A stretch of 13,602 bases of DNA. Source: Okeania sp. Its GTDB lineage: Bacteria > Cyanobacteriota > Cyanobacteriia > Cyanobacteriales > Microcoleaceae. Positions 275 through 12,216 of this stretch are shown one piece after another. The notes beneath the pieces were generated by a model. That model ran no database searches. It saw nothing but the letters and a program-made list of their open reading frames with translations, and was not told the origin of the DNA. Within the stretch, counting starts at the first letter, position 1, and every line of letters starts with the position of its first letter. The position numbers and the translations under genes were made by a program. The stretch is taken from the NCBI RefSeq assembly GCF_035285525.1, contig NZ_JAYKGW010000131.1, positions 1-13,602 on the forward strand, written 5' to 3'.

Positions 275-1822
275 CTATTCATTTACTCCTACTTTAATCA
301 GACACTGTGGATTTTCAACTTGCTTTCTAGGACGTTGAGTACGCAACAAACCAATATTGCTAGTCAATATAAAACTAGCAAAACTAGCGATCGCTATAAT
401 CGGAATTATTGATGTATCAGATAAAACACTCAAAATAATCGAGGTACTAATCGGAGTTTTAGTAATTGCTACATTAATAGCAGCCATGCAACATAACATC
501 GCAATAGTTGGATGTACCCCTGGAATACCTAAACTAATAGCTAACCCTAAACTTGCTCCCGTAAAAAATAGGGGAAAGATAAAACCACCTCTAAATCCAC
601 CATGAATAGTTAAAGTAATAGCTATCATTTTAGCCAAACAAATTCCCAGTAACATCATAACCGTAAATGTAGCAGCTGGTTCAATTAACTGAGTTTCAAT
701 TTGTTGCTCACTAAAAAAAAGAGTTTGGGGATATAAAACAGCCAACCAACCAATACCAAATCCTCCCAAAATTCCTCGCAAAATATGCCTATTTTCAATA
801 GGTTCAATGGCAAACTGTATAAGTCGAAAAATTCCAATAAACAAAATTCCAGCTAAAGCACCAACTATTCCTAAAATTCCAGCTTCCAAAAGACTTAACC
901 AACTCAAAGCAGGAATAGCATCAAAATAGTCAAAGCGATAGATACCGCCAATTTCTAACCCAGTGCCAAAGCGAAACACGCCAAAACTAAAAATTCCGGC
1001 CACAACCGCTGGAATAATTGCTTCGTAATACTGAATCCCCCGACGATGGGGAATCTCCAGAGCAAACAATGGGCCTCCTACAGGATCCCCAAAAAATGCT
1101 GCTAATGCTGCCCCCATACCACAAAATGTCAAAATTCGCGTTTCTTTTAGACTTAAATTAAGTTTATCAGCAATCCAACTTCCAAAACTGCCATTAATTT
1201 GTACCAAAGGTGCTTCAGGTCCTAAACTGCCACCAGCAGTAATTGATACTAAAGAAGTAGCAATCATTCCTGGAGTTTGATTTGGTTCCAAGCGACCAGG
1301 ATCGTGAATTTTATCAATTACTTTTGCCATTTCTCCTGGTTGACCAAAGAAATGGAGACATAAACCAACACCAAGTCCGCCAATTGTTGATATTATCCAA
1401 GTATAGTTCCATGCTGGTAGCCAGTCTGGAAAAATTCCTGTGAAGTAGTGCTTCCCTATTTCCCATACCAACTCCAAAAAGTTTTCTAAGACAAAGTAGT
1501 AAACTGTAGCAACTAATCCTCCTATAATACCAACAGCACTGGTATAAAGTAGAACTTTTGAGTATAATAGCTCATGGGTTTGACTGCTCAGTTCTAGTTC
1601 GTTGTCTTGAAAATTTTGGTTGTCCATACTAAAGAAAGGATTTTGAATTTCCTTTTGAATCAAAATGTTACGAATGAGACCAAATACCAATACAAAAAAG
1701 CCTATCAAGAAGATAGAAACAAAAATACCCATTGTAGTCACAAAAATGATTACTTGTTTCCTGCTACTCAAAGATTTGTAGCTATACTTGTTATAGTTGA
1801 TGGGAGGTATTACCCTCCGCAC
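275..1822 (-). CDS. ClC-family voltage-gated chloride channel / H+-anion antiporter homologue (no CBS domains)
   Basis: 515-codon ORF, highly hydrophobic throughout. ClC hallmarks: GSLGPEAPLVQ (gating-Glu motif, cf. GREGP), GMGAALAAFFGDPVGGPLFALE, and GGFIFP (GxFxP). The start is uncertain: the GTG at 1822 lies inside the predicted intron domain VI, and the first ATG is at 1732. Confidence 0.9.
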   Translation of the reverse strand: MRRVIPPINYNKYSYKSLSSRKQVIIFVTTMGIFVSIFLIGFFVLVFGLIRNILIQKEIQNPFFSMDNQNFQDNELELSSQTHELLYSKVLLYTSAVGIIGGLVATVYYFVLENFLELVWEIGKHYFTGIFPDWLPAWNYTWIISTIGGLGVGLCLHFFGQPGEMAKVIDKIHDPGRLEPNQTPGMIATSLVSITAGGSLGPEAPLVQINGSFGSWIADKLNLSLKETRILTFCGMGAALAAFFGDPVGGPLFALEIPHRRGIQYYEAIIPAVVAGIFSFGVFRFGTGLEIGGIYRFDYFDAIPALSWLSLLEAGILGIVGALAGILFIGIFRLIQFAIEPIENRHILRGILGGFGIGWLAVLYPQTLFFSEQQIETQLIEPAATFTVMMLLGICLAKMIAITLTIHGGFRGGFIFPLFFTGASLGLAISLGIPGVHPTIAMLCCMAAINVAITKTPISTSIILSVLSDTSIIPIIAIASFASFILTSNIGLLRTQRPRKQVENPQCLIKVGVNE

Positions 1823-1828
1823 CTCTAC
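1793..1828 (-). ncRNA. Group II intron domain VI-like hairpin with candidate branch-point A
   Basis: Minus strand reads GUAG-A-GGUG-C-GGAGG-GUAAUA-CCUCC-CAUC-AA-CUAU. This gives three stacked helices with an unpaired AA on the 3' strand, 7-8 nt from the proposed 3' splice site. Confidence 0.6.
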
Positions 1829-1832
1829 TTCA

Positions 1833-1867
1833 GAATCGGACGTGCGACTTTCACCGCATCACGGCTC
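1833..1867 (-). ncRNA. Group II intron domain V
   Basis: Minus strand reads GAGCCGUGAUGCGGU-GAAA-GUCGCACGUCCGAUUC. It has the AGC triad at nt 2-4, a 5-bp upper helix capped by a GAAA tetraloop, the 2-nt AC bulge on the 3' strand, and a lower helix with one C*A mismatch and one extra U. Confidence 0.8.
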
Positions 1868-3245
1868 CTAGCAGTCTGTGGTAACATCTCAGTTATAGAC
1901 AAAATCCGTTGATTAGGACTAAACCGGGTCAAGGTTTAGTTGTTCCTCATCTTCCACGGTCTCAGTCAGCGAGTGCCTTTGGCCTACTGCCTTGGGGTTA
2001 CTTACCTATGTGTCGTCTTGCGCTCGACTTTCGCCTGGGCAATTTTAGGCTAAAGGTTTTTACCCTGCACCCATAGACTTAGGAAACTTCACTCTAAGGT
2101 GTCTAAGCATCATCACCCTTCCTTTGAGGTTTCTTGACTGCCGGGGATAATTTCGTTCCCCCATCCTACCCGATAGCAAGATTTCCGAGCTTTCCTCCTA
2201 CTGACCAACTAACCTGCTTTGGTCAAACTTGCTTATCGTTTTTCCTCGTTCCGAATTACAGATTGTTTTGACGGTTTAGGGCTATCCCATTAATTCGCCT
2301 ACACAATCCCCAGGGATGCGTCTAACTATCAAATTTGACGCGGGGATGCTCGTGTGTTGTCAGGACACTTTTGGAGTGACTCCTTGCCAGGAAGTAAGAC
2401 ACTTTTTCAGGACATTCCGCCCCGGTACCCATGCCGTCTCCCCATCACCCCCAGTGTGCCTATCACCCTTAGCTCTGGTTGAGACCTGATACCAGCTTCA
2501 CTCTGCTAGTGGAAAAGGTCTAGCTCGGTGGGCCAGGTCGGGAGTCCGTTGTCCCCTAACGGGCTGGATTTTCACCAGCATCCGTAACTCAGTTATCACT
2601 ACAAGGCTCTTCTTTGGTGGCCTCGCGTTGGCAGGCTCTTCCTCCATGGCCTTGTTAGACCCTATTCATACCGCTCTAGTTGCTAGAGGCTCCTAATAGA
2701 AACGAGTCGCACTTGACATCTTCCTGAAACAGGTCTTGAGATTCTGTTCAGAATAAGCAAACTTTTCTATGGAACTATGAAATGGTCTATTGTAATAATT
2801 TAGAATTTAGAATTGAAGCAACTATTCAGGTGGAGGGGTTGACAAATAATCATATTTATGTTTTTACTACTTTCCATAAACCTTTTAGTCTGATTTATAG
2901 ATTCTTTAGTATCCTTAGATATAGTTTTTGGTTTTGAAACACTGACTATGCACAAAATCAAGAATAATGCAATCCCAATATCTGAATACTTACGGTCTAT
3001 TTAACAACAAAAGATAAATTAGACATTTCCAGAAATAATAAATCAAATCAATTATCGTACAGAAATTATCAATTTTTTCTTCCTATCTATTGCCTATTCC
3101 CGATATTTAGGGTTTGTTGATTAAAGATAAAAGTCTTTATGTATAAAAGTAAGTGCCTTTTCTAGTTGTGAAATAGTACCATATCTTCCCCTTATAAGGC
3201 CAAAAAAGTGTAGGTCATCTACAACTCCTTATTCCTCTAGACTCT

Positions 3246-3269
3246 GTAGGGACGTTGCATAGTCCCTAC
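3246..3269 (-). terminator. Perfect 8-bp hairpin (GTAGGGAC N8 GTCCCTAC) downstream of the gltA stop; possible terminator built from STRR-like sequence
   Basis: The stem was read directly and lies about 55 nt past the gltA stop. No U-run follows on either strand, so terminator function is doubtful. Confidence 0.3.
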
Positions 3270-3323
3270 CTACTCCCTACAAAGATCAAAAAGACTTCCC
3301 ATAAACAAACCCTATCTAAATAT

Positions 3324-4466
3324 TTAACGTTTTTCAGCAGGAGTATAATCAACATTATGAGATCCTGTATAAATTTGTGTAGGACGGAAAATACGATTAA
3401 CTGCCAATTGTTCTTTCCAGTGAGCTAACCAACCAGCTACACGAGCAATAGCAAATATAGGTGTAAATAAATCGCTAGAAATACCTAATTTGCGATAAAC
3501 TAGACCAGAATAAAAATCTACATTTGGATAAATTCCTTTGTGCCCTAGTCTTTCCTCTACAACCTTTTCTATCTCTAAAGCTATCTCATAATATTTGTCG
3601 TATCCAAACTTTTCAAATAACTCTACTGCTAATGCCTGAAGAATAACTGCTCTTGGGTCTTTAACCTTATAGACTCGGTGACCAAAACCCATAATTTTTG
3701 CCTTAGTCTCAAAACATTTTTCTAGATATGGTCTAACATTTTCTACCGAACCTATTTCAGATAACATACTGATTACATCTTCATTTGCTCCTCCATGCAA
3801 TGGACCTGCCAAAGTTCCTACTGCTGAAGCTATAACACCGTAGGGATCAGTCAAAGTAGAAGATGTTACCATTGCTGAAAATGTAGAAGCATTAATAGTA
3901 TGTTCAGCATGGAGAGTCAGACAAATATCAAATACTTTTGCTGCTAATGGATCCGGTTCCTTTTCATTAATCATATACAAAAAGTTAGCTGCATAATCCA
4001 AATCATCTCTTGGTTTAACAGGATCGTCACCTTTACGCATTAACTCAAAGGCAGCTACCATCGTCGGTATATTAGCAAGTAGCCTGACCACTGCTGTCCT
4101 AATATATTCGGGATTATCAAGGGCACGACGAGAATAAAATAAACCCAGAGCTGCTGCTGAAGTCTGTAGAGCATCCATAGGGTGTCCAGTTTCTGGGAAA
4201 CATTTCATCATGTCCCTAATTCTATATTTAATTCTTCTATTATCGCGAATCTCTTGCTCAAAGCTTTCTAATTCTTTTTTGCTAGGAAGGTTGCCCCAAA
4301 TTAATAAATATGCTGTTTCGAGAAAAGAACTTTCTTTGGCTAATTTTTCTATATTAATGCCTCGGTATTCCAATATCCCTTGTTGTCCATCGACGTAGCT
4401 GACACTTGATTGGGTAGCGGGAACACCTTCTAAACCAGGCTTGTATTCGATGCAGACGACGGACAT
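3324..4466 (-). CDS. gltA: Citrate synthase
   Basis: 380-aa ORF with the citrate synthase signature GFGHRVYKVKDPR, plus GPLHGGANE and LTLHAEH active-site contexts. An AAGGAG Shine-Dalgarno lies upstream of the ATG. Confidence 0.95.
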   Translation of the reverse strand: MSVVCIEYKPGLEGVPATQSSVSYVDGQQGILEYRGINIEKLAKESSFLETAYLLIWGNLPSKKELESFEQEIRDNRRIKYRIRDMMKCFPETGHPMDALQTSAAALGLFYSRRALDNPEYIRTAVVRLLANIPTMVAAFELMRKGDDPVKPRDDLDYAANFLYMINEKEPDPLAAKVFDICLTLHAEHTINASTFSAMVTSSTLTDPYGVIASAVGTLAGPLHGGANEDVISMLSEIGSVENVRPYLEKCFETKAKIMGFGHRVYKVKDPRAVILQALAVELFEKFGYDKYYEIALEIEKVVEERLGHKGIYPNVDFYSGLVYRKLGISSDLFTPIFAIARVAGWLAHWKEQLAVNRIFRPTQIYTGSHNVDYTPAEKR

Positions 4467-4566: not shown

Positions 4567-5067
4567 TTAATCCAGTATAAATCTTGGTGGTGTTAACCAA
4601 AACATTTGACTATTGCCTACTGGTGAACCAACTTCTGGTAAGGAAATACCTATTACGCCTGCTTTTTTGAGTATTAATACTTCTCTGGTTTCTCCCCAAA
4701 TTAGAATTTCTGCCCAATTTGCTAAGTCTGGTTGATGGCCTACTAGAGCTAATTCTCTATTTTTTTGAGGTGGCCATGTTTCTAGCCATTGTAGCCAAAG
4801 ATTAATATCTCCATCAGGGGCCAGGGGTGAAAATTCTTCTACTTTGGGACTTAATTTATGAGCTTGCAGAATTTTAGCTGTTTGATTAGCTCTAACTAAG
4901 GGACTGGTAAGAATTAGGTGGAAATGAAGACCTAGTTGGTTTAATTTTTGAGCAATTTTGTGGGTTTTGCGATCGCCTATTTCTGTTAAAGGACGTTCTG
5001 CATCTGTAGGACAATCTTCTCTACCAGCGGCAATACCGTGACGAATAAAATAAATATTTGTAGTCAT
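4567..5067 (-). CDS. sixA: Phosphohistidine phosphatase, SixA type (histidine phosphatase superfamily)
   Basis: 166 aa. RHG motif at the N-terminus (IYFIRHGIA), SPLVRANQTA and LVGHQPDL. Size and motif order are typical of SixA. Confidence 0.8.
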   Translation of the reverse strand: MTTNIYFIRHGIAAGREDCPTDAERPLTEIGDRKTHKIAQKLNQLGLHFHLILTSPLVRANQTAKILQAHKLSPKVEEFSPLAPDGDINLWLQWLETWPPQKNRELALVGHQPDLANWAEILIWGETREVLILKKAGVIGISLPEVGSPVGNSQMFWLTPPRFILD

Positions 5068-5073
5068 ATTTTT

Positions 5074-5106
5074 AGGGAGTAGGAAGTAGGGAGTAGGGAG
5101 TAGGGA
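5074..5106. repeat. STRR-type heptamer array, GGGAGTA x about 4.5
   Basis: agggagtaggaagtagggagtagggagtaggga read directly. The same heptamer recurs at 6252-6277 and as its reverse complement at 3270-3280 and 5648-5657. Confidence 0.9.
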
Positions 5107-5620
5107 ATAATGGATAATTGATAATGAAGTAGTTAGATAAAGATCAAGAGACAGTTATTACTCTTACTTCTCTGTTTTCCCATCCTTGTCATACTTCTCG
5201 TCCTGCTCAAACTCTGCTTTTTTCAGGGAGTCTTAAGTAGGGTTTGCGCTCAAAAGTCTTATGGGTAAGGGTAGAAAACAGAAGGCAGAAGGAATGGGAA
5301 TTATAGAATAATAGGAATATCCTTATGCAATGTCCGTACAGAAGAATCGTCCCTTGATTTTCTTGCCCTATCTTGACCAAAATCCTAGATTGATTTTTCG
5401 GGAACCGTACCATTACCAGCTAAAAGCTGGTACTTTATTAGTACCTGAAAAGGCTCAAACCTTTACTTATCAAAACTTTGATATTTCCATACGCCAGCCC
5501 TAAGTGATTTTACCAGACTACTATCACTCTTTTTCCTTTCGCCTCATCTCCTTACTACACTGTTTCATCTTAATAGATGTAGGTTGGGTTTAGGGACGAA
5601 ACAAGGGCAACAATCTTTCT

Positions 5621-5657
5621 CCCCCAGTCCCCCAGTCCCCCAGTCCCCTACTCCCTA
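5621..5657. repeat. STRR-type heptamer array, CCCCAGT x 3, followed by CCCCTACTCCCTA
   Basis: cccccagtcccccagtcccccagtcccctactcccta read directly. CCCCAGT matches the STRR1 heptamer of heterocystous cyanobacteria as I recall it. Confidence 0.9.
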
Positions 5658-5664
5658 ATTCTGA

Positions 5665-5699
5665 TACAAAAAACCCTGCACTGAAATAGGCAGGGTTTT
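5665..5699 (-). terminator. Rho-independent terminator directly after the HNH gene stop (bidirectional shape)
   Basis: CCCTGC/GCAGGG stem, extendable by A-U pairs to about 10 bp, with a 10-nt loop. On the minus strand a run of 6 U follows; on the plus strand TTTTC follows. Confidence 0.7.
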
Positions 5700-6203
5700 C
5701 TACATACCAATCACATATTTTTGCCATTCTTTGTTTTTACCACTTTTAACGTATTTAGTCAATTCAAAATACAGGCTACTATGGGGTTTTCGAGGCCGAC
5801 AATGCAAAGCCATATTAGCCTCTTTTGGTGTACGACTTCCTTTGCGGACATTACAACTCACACAAGCAGTCACAAGATTTTCCCAGGTATCTGCACCACC
5901 ACGCGATCGCGGTATTACATGATCTATGGTCAAATTATCACCCGTATAATTACAGTATTGACAAGAATGACTATCTCTGTGCATAATATTTCGGCGTGTT
6001 AAAGGAATATCTTTATAAGGAACTCGGACATAGTAGCGCAGTCGGATGACTGTAGGTAGGGGAATATTAGGAAGGATATACACCCCTTTGTGTTCAATTT
6101 GCTCCGCTTTATCTTTGAGCAACAAGACGATCGCTCGTCGCCAACTCGTGATATTGAGCGGTTCATAAGAAGCGTTCAACACTAAAACATTGGCCATTGA
6201 CAT
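5700..6203 (-). CDS. Small stand-alone HNH endonuclease family protein
   Basis: 167 aa. C-terminal HNH/zinc-finger module: HSCQYCNYTG...IDHVIPRSRGGADTWENLVTACVSCNVRKG. The N-terminal 70 aa or so (VLVLNASYEPLNITSWRRAIVLL) have no assignable function. Confidence 0.85.
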   Translation of the reverse strand: MSMANVLVLNASYEPLNITSWRRAIVLLLKDKAEQIEHKGVYILPNIPLPTVIRLRYYVRVPYKDIPLTRRNIMHRDSHSCQYCNYTGDNLTIDHVIPRSRGGADTWENLVTACVSCNVRKGSRTPKEANMALHCRPRKPHSSLYFELTKYVKSGKNKEWQKYVIGM

Positions 6204-6251
6204 TTCTGAAAAGAGAATTTTTGATCACATATTAGCACAATTAATATATTT

Positions 6252-6277
6252 AGGGAGTAGGGAGTAGGGAGTAGGGA
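6252..6277. repeat. STRR-type heptamer array, GGGAGTA x about 3.5
   Basis: agggagtagggagtagggagtaggga read directly, in the divergent HNH/alr spacer. Confidence 0.9.
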
Positions 6278-6468
6278 TTAGAAGGAAACCTTAGAAGTTT
6301 CTTTAAGAAACCGGGTTTCTGGGTAGGTTGGGACATTTAATAAATGCTCAAACTTAGTCAAAGATTAATGCATAAATTTTTAATTTTTAATTTTGACTTG
6401 CGCCCTACAGCCTGAATTTTGCCAATTTATGGAGTAATTGTTTTAATGAATAAAAAATTTAACTGATT

Positions 6469-6474
6469 GAGGAG
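6469..6474 (+). promoter_or_regulatory. Shine-Dalgarno (GAGGAG) for alr
   Basis: ttGAGGAGtgacggaaaATG, a 9-nt spacer to the ATG at 6484. Confidence 0.5.
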
Positions 6475-6483
6475 TGACGGAAA

Positions 6484-7695
6484 ATGTTAAGTTGGGAAAA
6501 TGCTTTTTTGAAAACTCAAGCCACAGAAATTTTAAATCAGGGATCAATAGAAAGTGATATAGTTGGAGGTATTTGTCAAAGAGCATGGGTAGAAATTAAT
6601 GATCGGGCACTGACCTATAATGTCCGAGAACTTAAAAGTCTTTTATCAGCTAAAACGAAATTAATGGGAGTGGTAAAAGCAGATGCTTATGGACATGGAG
6701 CGTGTAAAGTATCTCAAAGTATTTTAGAAGCTGGTGCAGATTGGTTGGCAGTGGCAACAGTTCCAGAAGGAATAGAATTAAGATTAGCTGGAATAGAAGC
6801 ACCAATTTTAATTTTAGGGGCAACCGATCAACCTGAACAAATTCAAGCGATCGCTCACTGGGAACTACAACCAACTATTGGTACGCCTCAACAAGCTTTA
6901 GTTTTTTCGGAAACTCTTTCTTATTACACGGAAGCAATGCCAGTACATCTGAAGTTGGATACAGGAATGTCTCGCTTAGGAACATCTTGGCAACAGGCAG
7001 TAGAATTTGTAAAATTTGTACAGGGCTTGCCAAATTTAAAAATTGCGAGTATTTATTCCCATTTAGCTACAGCAGATGAATCAGACCAGACAGTGATGAG
7101 ACAACAGCATCAAAGATTTCAGGAAGCAATAGGTTTGTGTTGTATTGATGGCAAAGGTTTTCCTGGTGATATCCGACTTCATTTAGCTAACTCCGCAGCA
7201 ACTTTAACTGACTCTGCTTTACACTACGATATGGTGAGAGTGGGTTTAGCTATTTATGGTTTATATCCAGCACCTCATCTACAGGAGAAAATTAAGTTAA
7301 AACCAGCAATGGAAGTAAAAGCTAGGGTAACGCAAGTCAAAACTATTGAAGCAGGTACTGGGGTGAGTTATGGTTATAAGTTTATTGCTCCCAAACAGAT
7401 GCGGTTAGCAGTGGTGGGTATTGGTTATGCTGACGGTATACCTCGTAATCTTTCTAATAAGATGAAAGTTATTGTGCGCGATCGCCTAATTCGGCAAGTG
7501 GGAGCTATTACGATGGATCAGTTGATGCTGGATGTGAGTGATATTGCCGATCTAGAAACAGGTGAAGTAGTAACTTTATTAGGGCAAGTTGGGGAACATC
7601 GAATTTCTGCTGAAGACTGGGCAAATACTTTAGGAACTATTTCTTGGGAAATTCTTTGTGGTTTCAAGCATAGGTTGCCTCGTGTAGGAGTTTAG
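6484..7695 (+). CDS. alr: Alanine racemase (PLP-dependent)
   Basis: 403 aa. PLP-lysine motif VVKADAYGHGA near the N-terminus, a C-terminal beta-domain with GYADGIPR, and length and domain order typical of Alr. Confidence 0.92.
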   Translation: MLSWENAFLKTQATEILNQGSIESDIVGGICQRAWVEINDRALTYNVRELKSLLSAKTKLMGVVKADAYGHGACKVSQSILEAGADWLAVATVPEGIELRLAGIEAPILILGATDQPEQIQAIAHWELQPTIGTPQQALVFSETLSYYTEAMPVHLKLDTGMSRLGTSWQQAVEFVKFVQGLPNLKIASIYSHLATADESDQTVMRQQHQRFQEAIGLCCIDGKGFPGDIRLHLANSAATLTDSALHYDMVRVGLAIYGLYPAPHLQEKIKLKPAMEVKARVTQVKTIEAGTGVSYGYKFIAPKQMRLAVVGIGYADGIPRNLSNKMKVIVRDRLIRQVGAITMDQLMLDVSDIADLETGEVVTLLGQVGEHRISAEDWANTLGTISWEILCGFKHRLPRVGV

Positions 7696-9371: not shown

Positions 9372-9457
9372 ATTAGCTCCTTTTTATTAAAGTAAATTTG
9401 CTCTATAAATAATAGAATGATATGGTGGTTAAGCACAGTAATAAGAGCTAGAGAAAA

Positions 9458-10177
9458 ATGAACAATCAATATACAGGGTTTACTGAGTATTATGATTTGT
9501 GGGTTACTTCTGGTTATTATAACTACCAGGATATTGCTAAGGAAACACATTCAGTTATCGGGAATGGTCGCCAGATTATTGAGTTAGGTGTAGGAACAGG
9601 GTTACTAGCACAAGAGTACATTAATATTGATCCAACCTGCGAGTTTACAGGAGTTGATTTTACCTCTTCCTTGCTGGAAATTGCTGAGAAACGCTTGGAA
9701 AATCGGGTTAAATTGATTGAAGCTGATGCTGTAACAATGGACTTAAATACAAAGTTTGATGTGGCCATATCCAATGGAGGAGTGTGGGGAATTCTTGATT
9801 TAGGTGATAAATGGGAATTTGGAGGCCATGTTGCAGGGATTGAAGCTAATAGTCAAGGTTTGAGAAATGTAGCTTACCACTTAAAAGAAGGAGGATTATT
9901 ATTATTACACCTGCAAAAACCACATCCAAACTATGAAAAATCTATAGGTGAGGGAATTATCTATTCTCAGTCTATTGAAGAAGTAGAAGATACGGTAGAT
10001 TATCATACTCTACTGAAGAGCTATTTATTCAAGAAAGAAGAAGAAATTGTGGTTCAAGAGCAAATTAAAATTACCTGTTTTAAACCAGAAATTTCTGAGA
10101 AATTGTTAAGTGAGGCGGGATTTGATTTCCAAGGTACTAGCAATGGCGATCGCTTTGCAATTTACAAAAAGCGATAA
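9458..10177 (+). CDS. Class I SAM-dependent methyltransferase
   Basis: 239 aa. Motif I IIELGVGTGLL, post-I GVDFT, FDVAISNGG, and an N-terminal YYDLW...YNYQDIAKE segment reminiscent of small-molecule methyltransferases. Confidence 0.8.
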   Translation: MNNQYTGFTEYYDLWVTSGYYNYQDIAKETHSVIGNGRQIIELGVGTGLLAQEYINIDPTCEFTGVDFTSSLLEIAEKRLENRVKLIEADAVTMDLNTKFDVAISNGGVWGILDLGDKWEFGGHVAGIEANSQGLRNVAYHLKEGGLLLLHLQKPHPNYEKSIGEGIIYSQSIEEVEDTVDYHTLLKSYLFKKEEEIVVQEQIKITCFKPEISEKLLSEAGFDFQGTSNGDRFAIYKKR

Positions 10178-10234
10178 TTAATTTCAATCCTGAAAGCTTT
10201 TTCTACGAAGTTTAGTAATACAAAAAGACTATCT

Positions 10235-10747
10235 ATGAGTATTTCCATTCAGCAGGTTAGTACCTCTGAGCAATTAAATTTATGTCACCAGATGCAAATA
10301 GCAATTTTTCATCACGAACTAAATTTGTTCGGAATGCAAATACCTGATGACTACGATCGCTCATCACTTTATATGCAAATTGTTGATTCCCAAGTTGTTG
10401 TGGGAACTTACCGCATTGTTCCTAATACCTCTCTCGGACTGCCAATACAAGAAACTGGATTTAATCTTGAGCAATTTGAGAAAAATAAGATATGTGAAAT
10501 GTCTCGTCTAGTTCTTCTGAAAGAAAAGCGGGGTAAAATCCCTTTTAGCCAAGTTTTCTCTTCCGCTCGTAATGCTGCCAAAGAGCATTACAATGCTTCT
10601 ACTCTAGTTGTGGCGATCCTGCCTCAAAATGTGTCTCTGTTTAAACGGTATGGTTTCTCACAGGTGGGGGAACCGCTGCACGATCCGACTGTTAAGTCTA
10701 CCGACAAGAATGAGTCAGTTATTATCCCAATGCAAACGTATATTTAA
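10235..10747 (+). CDS. GNAT-fold N-acyltransferase-like protein (Acetyltransf_5 / N-acyl amino acid synthase-like)
   Basis: 170 aa. The pattern ...FHHEL...DDYD...MQIVDSQVVVGTYRIV...CEMSRLVLLKEKRG...FKRYGF resembles the GNAT subfamily that includes N-acyl amino acid synthases and OlsB-like enzymes. Subfamily assignment is by eye only. Confidence 0.6.
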   Translation: MSISIQQVSTSEQLNLCHQMQIAIFHHELNLFGMQIPDDYDRSSLYMQIVDSQVVVGTYRIVPNTSLGLPIQETGFNLEQFEKNKICEMSRLVLLKEKRGKIPFSQVFSSARNAAKEHYNASTLVVAILPQNVSLFKRYGFSQVGEPLHDPTVKSTDKNESVIIPMQTYI

Positions 10748-10885
10748 TCAGAACTTACACAGACGCACCCAGAAACTTGGTTTATTGTAGACTTTTCGTC
10801 AAAAACAATGATTTGTAGCAGAAACTGGGTTTCGCGTAAGTAAGTTATAGTTACTCTTCTGTCTGAATTTATAATCATAAAACTG

Positions 10886-12160: not shown

Positions 12161-12216
12161 CCCTTAACCGCTGTTCCCTGTTCCCTTAACCGCTGTTCCC
12201 TGTTCCCTGTTCCCTG
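12161..12216. repeat. 22-nt direct repeat x 2 (cccttaaccgctgttccctgtt) running into a CCCTGTT heptamer (STRR-type) array
   Basis: 12161-12182 and 12183-12204 are identical, followed by ccctgttccctg. This is the reverse complement of the GGGAACA units at 8791-8823. Confidence 0.9.

Follow-up and report, generated by a model that had tools for sequence, protein, structure and literature searches.

What is the 923-nucleotide (nt) block of GC-rich DNA that separates a citrate synthase gene from a chloride channel gene in the cyanobacterium Okeania sp., and how did it come to be there? The block is part of a 13,602-bp stretch of DNA, a whole NCBI contig of Okeania sp., which we refer to as the window. 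An earlier interpretation, hereafter the sequence-only reading, proposed that the minus strand of the window carries a non-autonomous group II intron without an open reading frame (ORF), extending exactly from 2712 to 1790. Our analysis supports this proposal: window 2712..1790 (−) is very probably an ORF-less group II intron, complete at 923 nt and apparently of the IIB, or chloroplast-like (CL), type. The support comes from an Rfam match to domains V and VI, exact boundaries, covariation, cognate exon-binding sites, a sibling intron that encodes a protein, and the lack of reverse transcriptase (RT) remnants. Throughout, intron nt n corresponds to window position 2713 − n, and all parts of the intron are on the minus strand.

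Boundaries of the element

Both ends of the insertion can be fixed to a single base by comparison with loci that lack it. Okeania sp. SIO3B5 (L125) and Okeania hirsuta (L126) carry the citrate synthase gene (gltA) and the ClC-type chloride channel gene (clc) in the same order as the window, without the intron. When 1790..2712 is removed from the window, the remaining DNA aligns gap-free over the junction with the spacers of both loci. The window junction then reads ...TTCAGGAAGATGTCAA/AAGTATAGCTAC..., the counterpart in L125 is ...TTCGGGAAGATGTCAAGGATGTGACTAA..., and the 5′ exon target GGGAAGATGTCAA is unbroken in both L125 and L126. Moreover, the clc start codons of all three loci co-align 57 nt downstream of the junction. 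This comparison also places the intron in the leader of clc or the spacer before it, that is, in non-coding DNA.

The same ends are defined by homology to a second ORF-less copy in Okeania sp. SIO2F4 (L107), which lies between unrelated genes and is 84% identical over its full length. Homology between the two copies begins precisely at GTGCGAC and stops precisely at CTATAAC. The 5′ end of the intron, GUGCGAC (2706..2712), agrees with the GUGYG consensus, occurs where the sequence-only reading had placed it (GTGCGAC at 2712..2706), and is identical in L107, L121 and L123. The 3′ end is ...AAC, the bases 1792..1790.

The element was first singled out as a GC-rich block without an ORF of 60 amino acids (aa) or more. 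The compositional difference is real, with 49.9% G+C in the element versus 36.4% in the remaining window. The statement about ORFs holds for 1913..2712 only, since the 3′ end of the intron is overlapped by two mechanical ORFs. One is a 101-aa ORF with a TTG start (1607..1912, plus strand) that overlaps the last 123 nt of the intron, and the other is the clc ORF, whose spurious 5′ extension reaches 1822 and overlaps the last 33 nt.

Relatives with and without a protein gene

Relatives of the intron were gathered with a degenerate domain V pattern and one metagenome scan, followed by BLAST comparison. The exact domain V sequence, searched in one genome per species, gave 0 matches. In addition to L107, two relatives are particularly informative. 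The first, L121, is a 2,209-nt intron on a metagenome contig that is 82.6% identical to the window copy over intron nt 1-551 and matches it again over domains V-VI. Its domain IV encodes a 495-aa ORF with RVT_N, RVT_1 and GIIM domains and an HNH motif. The second, L124, is a third ORF-less copy (5677-6561, minus strand of its contig), truncated where the contig stops. Translation of its 3′ exon gives NHDNWKPKNLLAIHESCHDYIHMGKRSKA and then a stop codon, which is the C-terminus of an L121-type protein, and another domain V-VI follows 97 nt later. The L124 copy therefore sits inside the 3′ part of the protein ORF of an outer, related intron, where HNH is encoded, and the two make up a twintron. 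Thus sibling copies of the kind that the sequence-only reading had left to be looked for (L107 and L124, both ORF-less) and a full-length relative that encodes the protein (L121) were found, in other genomes or metagenome contigs.

The 273-nt interior of domain IV is 89-90% identical among the three ORF-less copies, is confined to them, and is unlike the protein gene. The ORF-less form is thus a separate lineage that is present at no fewer than three different sites.

Two further loci contain related elements. On the opposite strand of L107, 295 nt from the ORF-less copy of SIO2F4, a degenerate domain V-VI remnant of another intron (4771-4848, plus strand) falls below the Rfam threshold. A 4.3-kb contig of Microcoleus sp. 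AR_TQ3_B6 (L035) has two GTGCGAT 5′ ends approximately 550 nt apart and three domain V-VI matches, an arrangement that suggests nested or tandem introns of a related family.

Exon recognition

If the element is a group II intron, its exon-binding sites (EBS) should be complementary to the intron-binding sites (IBS) of the exons that flank it. In the window, EBS1 (UUGAUA; 2327..2332, nt 381-386) lies in the loop of hairpin 2341..2318, the stem of which covaries, and pairs with IBS1 (UGUCAA) at the end of the 5′ exon to form 6 bp including one G·U. EBS2 (CUUCCUGG; 2387..2394, nt 319-326) is complementary to IBS2 (UCAGGAAG), which spans exon positions −15 to −8. The 5′ exon target (2713..2727, minus strand) consists of IBS2 at 2727..2720, a single A, and IBS1 at 2718..2713.

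Each relative carries a different EBS1 that fits its own 5′ exon end. In L107, GCAUCU faces AGAUGU; in L121, UAUAAA faces UUUAUA; and in L124, CCGUCGA faces UCGACGG, the latter being deduced from homologous HNH-coding DNA. These cognate EBS1-IBS1 helices comprise 6, 6, 6 and 7 bp for the window copy, L107, L121 and L124, respectively, compared with 4 bp or fewer for any non-cognate combination. The segments of L107, L121 and L124 that are homologous to EBS2 are also complementary to their own exons, less sharply than EBS1. Indeed, domain I varies in exactly those segments that would be expected to bind the exons.

The 3′ exon begins with the 57-nt leader between the intron and the clc ATG (1733..1789, minus strand), whose first base, A 1789, is the putative IBS3. 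Its candidate partner, EBS3 (U 2293), and a candidate δ′ (A 2294) occupy an internal loop below the EBS arms (2293..2294). In the four copies, column 2293 contains U, U, G and G against first 3′-exon bases A, G, C and C, which with only four sequences is a weak correspondence. The A beside this column and the U located 5′ of EBS1 are both invariant.

Two other pairings were rejected. A IIA-type δ-δ′ interaction between the base 5′ of EBS1 and the first 3′-exon base fails because the former is an invariant U, whereas the exon base differs between copies. The sequence-only reading had offered UUGAC at 2226..2222 as EBS1, a candidate that it flagged as weak itself. These bases lie in the inner stem of domain II, which is built from a different sequence in L121, and the homologous bases in L107 mismatch the L107 exon.

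Secondary structure

A six-domain fold of the kind called for in the sequence-only reading was built from comparison of the available copies, and it is supported by covariation save for a provisional domain III. Compensatory changes back domains I and II, the basal stem of domain IV, and domains V and VI. When RNAalifold was applied to four copies, 133 pairs were identified in domains I-II, 26 of which have compensatory changes on both sides, and an independent count of pairs in these domains found 97.3% of cells paired. These values are not attained in any of 500 shuffled controls, and sliding the structure by 1-3 columns leaves 1-4 compensatory pairs.

Domain I (2245..2706, nt 7-468), defined by RNAalifold and pair counts, is closed by CUCGUU/AACGAG. 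Domain II (2172..2237, nt 476-541) has two stems that are both rebuilt in L121 with 8 compensatory pairs. It is followed by GGGUAGGAU, possibly J2/3, and by a hairpin at the position of domain III, GGGGG-AACGAAAUUAU-CCCC (2143..2162, nt 551-570), which is rebuilt in L121 as GCAAGC/GCUUGC. The end of this hairpin at nt 570 directly abuts the start of the domain IV stem at nt 571. Domain IV (1870..2142, nt 571-843), which lacks an ORF, is delimited through covariation by the basal stem GGCAGUC/GACUGCU; compensatory changes preserve this stem in L124 (GGCAAUC/GAUUGCU), and L121 has a rebuilt version, GGGUAAUC/GAUUAUCU.

Within domain I, an internal loop between the GACGG/CCGUC and GGGU/GCCC helices carries a motif resembling the 11-nt tetraloop receptor, with the 3′ half CCUAAAC at 2274..2280 and the partner GCAUGG at 2434..2429, and it is invariant in all copies. 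The canonical 11-nt receptor is UAUGG/CCUAAG. From this motif resemblance, we take the CAUGG/CCUAAA loop to be a candidate ζ′ receptor for the GAAA loop of domain V. Candidate positions for the γ-γ′ and ε-ε′ contacts are invariant among the available copies. The direct abutment of nt 570 and 571 and, by motif resemblance, the CAUGG/CCUAAA loop may point to subgroup IIB/CL.

A second potential tetraloop receptor, CCUAAG..UAUGG at intron nt 631-643, was discarded because its halves are adjacent and neither L107 nor L124 conserves it. Minimum-free-energy folding of the whole intron as a single sequence was uninformative.

Domains V and VI and the condition of this copy

Domain V spans 35 nt (1833..1867) and includes an AGC triad, a GAAA loop, an AC bulge, an extra bulged U and a C·A mismatch. 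The sequence-only reading described this hairpin by its length, position (1867..1833), triad, loop and AC bulge, all of which are present; the pattern is unique in the window and is matched by 0 of 200 shuffled sequences. The extra bulged U is common to the whole family. A 4-nt linker, UGAA, leads to the hairpin of domain VI (1793..1828, nt 885-920; z = −3.7), whose stems covary, as seen in the basal stem (GUAG/CUAU versus GGAG/CUCU). The unpaired A residues noted earlier are likewise found, at 1798 and 1797, as is the ...AAC end at 1790. Of these residues, A 1797 is the candidate branch point: it stays unpaired in the fold, lies 8 nt from the 3′ end and does not vary among 8 copies.

The Rfam model RF00029 (Intron_gpII) matches 1869..1790 (−) over its full extent with 40.4 bits, where the gathering score is 40 (E = 3.7e-5). 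Thus a significant Intron_gpII match does cover 1793-1867 (−), where its absence had been named beforehand as an outcome that would speak against an intron. This is the sole gathering-level Rfam match in the window. A permissive scan also yielded the plastid ndhA/ndhB domain V model RF04356, which with 36.5 bits falls short of its gathering score of 61, and the domain V sequence in the window resembles that plastid type. Both models cover domains V-VI only.

Several observations weigh against the interpretation of this DNA as a complete and functional intron. The RF00029 score is barely above threshold and lies 10-22 bits under those of relatives, which reach 47-62 bits. The score is lower because of a G-to-A change at 1836 in domain V, and the low margin is owed to the C·A mismatch together with the inserted U. 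No Rfam group-II-D1D4 model matches, even at E values up to 10; the D1-D4 models miss this intron lineage, which has no bearing on group II membership as such. The hairpin at the position of domain III is only 20 nt long, which is unusually small for this domain, and domains II and III are therefore numbered provisionally. Also, the 13.6-kb source contig, which is all of the genome that was searchable, holds no maturase gene.

The remaining points concern the catalytic core and the helices of this particular copy. The C·A mismatch, which the earlier reader missed, is beside the catalytic triad and private to the window copy. The mismatched C is the C of AGC, and A 1836 replaces a G that forms a C-G pair in 7 of 7 relatives. 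Folding of the isolated domain V gives −8.2 kcal/mol, similar to shuffled sequences (z = −0.25), compared with −15.2 kcal/mol (z = −3.0) in relatives, so that the mismatch costs about 7 kcal/mol of predicted stability. Furthermore, private substitutions in the window copy break 5 of the 13 pairs that they affect versus 2 of 11, 3 of 14 and 1 of 5 in its siblings, which is the highest fraction among the four copies, although the numbers are small.

A just 0.4-bit margin over the Rfam threshold and the lack of a D1-D4 family match are what might be expected of a chance domain-V-like hairpin with no intron present, in which case the GC-rich non-coding DNA would be something unrelated, for example a different mobile element or a structured RNA. 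The probability of this explanation is negligible, and we consider it already refuted. The boundaries given by the empty sites and the sibling coincide with GUGCGAC and ...AAC, domain IV of the relative with 82.6% identity over nt 1-551 encodes a group II RT/maturase, and there is extensive covariation in addition to cognate EBS-IBS matches.

The defects private to the window copy are more relevant to the main alternative, which differs from the favored reading only in present-day activity. According to this alternative, the intron inserted in the past, lost catalysis through the domain V G-to-A change and the broken helices, and has been retained as inert DNA or leader RNA because the host pays little for an unspliced insert in a non-coding spacer. 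The private mismatch opposite the C of AGC, the shuffled-like stability of domain V, the pair-breaking substitutions and the reduced Rfam score are all consistent with such decay. So is the location, which removes selection for splicing: since the copy resides in a leader or spacer, nothing in the function of the host gene compels its removal. However, the rest of the ribozyme is intact, with 127 of 132 domain I-II pairs kept, as are domain VI, the branch-point A and both termini, and the match of EBS1 and EBS2 to the flanking exon is still perfect. A C·A apposition can also be tolerated as a wobble-like pair. On balance, we regard a dead copy as a serious contender that nonetheless falls somewhat short of even chances.

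Under the favored reading, the window copy is largely intact but may be impaired at the catalytic core. Its present-day splicing is uncertain because of the private G-to-A change opposite the catalytic AGC, and the case for efficient splicing is only slightly better than balanced.

Loss of the protein gene

The sequence-only reading found no RT/maturase ORF in domain IV, and we can add that remnants of one are missing as well. Searches of the intron and the window by tblastn with the sibling protein (E < 1) and by sensitive blastn detected no RT/maturase remnant, and none was revealed by Smith-Waterman alignment of the intron with domain IV of L121. Domain IV of the window copy has stops in all three frames.

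A protein of the parental type is nonetheless present within the genus. Proteins 82-86% identical to that of L121 are encoded in four Okeania assemblies and in Hydrocoleum, and one with 80% identity is found in Trichodesmium. Among proteins of solved structure, the best match of the L121 protein is the T.el4h protein (E = 1.8e-61), which belongs to a CL/IIB1 intron (PMC2882425). A plasmid collection yielded only domain V-VI matches beside RT genes.

An ORF-less intron could in principle be self-sufficient and splice in vivo without a maturase, as proposed for C.te.I1 of Clostridium tetani. The complete fold of domains I-VI would be compatible with this behavior, for which there is one bacterial case on record (PMC4424553). 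However, related protein-encoding copies and a matching protein lineage exist in the genus, as is usual for ORF-less introns that depend on proteins supplied in trans. The 5′ part of domain IV also retains motifs in common with the ORF-bearing relative (GCUUAGACAC...AGUGAAGU), and the weakened domain V makes unaided catalysis less likely. We therefore judge self-sufficiency to be very unlikely, and favor an intron that would rely on a maturase encoded elsewhere.

The host locus

The intron, gltA and clc are all on the minus strand. Upstream of the intron, gltA (3324..4466) is identified by Pfam Citrate_synt (E = 1.6e-136). Downstream, clc (275..1732; Pfam Voltage_CLC, E = 7.5e-52) starts with ATG at 1732..1730 and encodes a 485-aa product that is 100% identical to an NCBI protein from "Okeania sp.". 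Removal of the intron is predicted to join ...GAUGUCAA to AAGUAUAG. Because the flanks of the window copy are host spacer DNA, it is not part of a twintron. Promoter and terminator scans around the intron gave nothing exceeding chance.

The intron affects how clc is likely to be annotated. A gene caller that selects the longest ORF would mis-set the start to GTG 1822, 30 codons 5′ of the accepted ATG, and the first 11 codons of the resulting mechanical 515-aa ORF (275-1822, minus strand) fall within domain VI of the intron.

Several other features of the window were recorded. The gltA-clc spacer, measured without the intron, is 668 nt in the window versus 237 nt in SIO3B5 and 480 nt in O. hirsuta. 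The additional DNA at approximately 2790-3320 is AT-rich and is common to O. hirsuta only in part. Just 3′ of the clc stop codon, a 103-bp unit is repeated in tandem (1-258; 2.5 copies, 98% identity) and gives rise to repeated small ORFs. A free-standing 167-aa HNH endonuclease ORF at 5700-6203 (−) is unrelated to the intron; it was considered as a fragment of an intron protein and rejected, as it is syntenic in the intron-free L125 and L126 loci and unlike the L121 protein. Tandem heptamers and octamers (TAGGGAG, TCCCCCAG, CTGTTCC) are located at 5073-5106, 5620-5648, 6251-6281 and 12171-12216. Such short repeats are of a kind common in filamentous cyanobacteria, and three of the arrays flank the HNH ORF. 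Lastly, methyltransferase and FeeM-like genes at 9455-10748 show 70-76% DNA identity to a contig of Candidatus Paraprochloron terpiosi (L010).

A model for origin and splicing

Together, these findings are compatible with a simple history for the element. A small lineage probably arose from a protein-encoding intron by loss of the entire domain IV ORF, and went on to colonize other sites in marine filamentous cyanobacteria of the Okeania type. Insertion in the window would have occurred by reverse splicing into DNA at ...UCAGGAAG-A-UGUCAA/A..., guided by EBS2, EBS1 and probably EBS3, and by reverse transcription, with a protein of the family acting in trans.

Once in place, the intron is probably transcribed within the clc leader, because its site is 57 nt 5′ of the clc ATG and on the same strand as gltA and clc. 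Removal from this RNA would proceed by two-step branching, wherein A 1797 of domain VI attacks the 5′ splice site. Since there is no trace of its own protein gene, excision would depend on a related full-length intron at another place in the genome to provide the maturase in trans. We infer these steps from the demonstrated behavior of TeI3/TeI4, from proposals made for Trichodesmium, and from the general pattern of ORF-less introns.

A more elaborate scenario can be imagined, in which the ORF-less lineage acts as an actively retargeting parasite of its parent family, altering EBS1 and EBS2 to reach new sites and attacking even the HNH-coding region of the parent, and the window copy forms a splicing-gated 5′ untranslated region that could gate clc expression by the supply of maturase in trans. 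We consider this scenario unlikely.

Comparison with known systems

Loss of the ORF, dependence on proteins in trans, retargeting through EBS changes and nesting in the protein gene of a relative have all been documented already. In bacteria, ORF-less introns are nearly always found in genomes that also have related protein-encoding introns (PMC4424553). The Okeania element is therefore an added family member comparable to the ORF-less introns of Thermosynechococcus and Trichodesmium, and it introduces no new principle or mechanism. Its value lies mainly in annotation, and in the example that it provides of ORF-less intron spread in marine filamentous cyanobacteria. Introns of this kind are easily missed because searches for introns are usually driven by RT genes.

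The closest parallel is with the TeI3 introns of Thermosynechococcus elongatus, which are ORF-less members of CL/IIB1 that are mobilized in trans, have diverged EBS and form twintrons (PMC2882425; Mohr, Ghanem and Lambowitz 2010). In both cases, a cyanobacterial ORF-less derivative of a protein-encoding intron, of type IIB in TeI3 and apparently also in Okeania, occupies several sites as one lineage, mostly in intergenic DNA, with EBS that have diverged to fit new sites and a dependence on a related trans-acting protein that in Okeania is expected by analogy. Some copies are nested in the protein gene of a related intron, here represented by L124, and the best solved structure for the L121 protein is that of T.el4h. 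However, there are also several differences. TeI3 keeps N- and C-terminal remnants of the ORF around one deletion, whereas domain IV of the Okeania intron has no detectable remnant. TeI3 is present as many near-identical copies per genome, while the copies described here are about 15% diverged and come from different genomes or metagenome contigs. The Okeania-type domain V is 35 nt long with an extra bulged U. Also, in TeI3 twintrons the inserted copy sits between the first and second ATG of the ORF, in contrast to the L124 insertion in the HNH-coding end.

For the ORF-less introns of Trichodesmium erythraeum IMS101, reliance on trans-encoded maturases has been proposed, and twintrons occur there as well (PMC4649490; Pfreundt and Hess 2015). 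These introns share with the Okeania element a marine filamentous cyanobacterial host in which the L121 protein lineage is present (80% identity). Those documented to splice interrupt protein-coding genes (PMC4649490), whereas the window copy is in a leader or spacer; this comparison is with the published description.

A third parallel comes from Methanosarcina, for which PMC4649490 and PMC2882425 cite Dai and Zimmerly (2003) for ORF-less and RT-encoding introns that home into the ORFs of related introns. An ORF-less copy within the ORF of a related intron is also what is seen in L124. The Methanosarcina introns differ in having an archaeal host and in forming nested arrays, unlike the window copy, which is not nested. 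The Okeania lineage thus adds a further case, beyond Thermosynechococcus and Trichodesmium, of ORF-less cyanobacterial introns that spread through changes in EBS and invasion of a related protein gene, which is a proposed early step toward introns that depend on shared splicing machinery.

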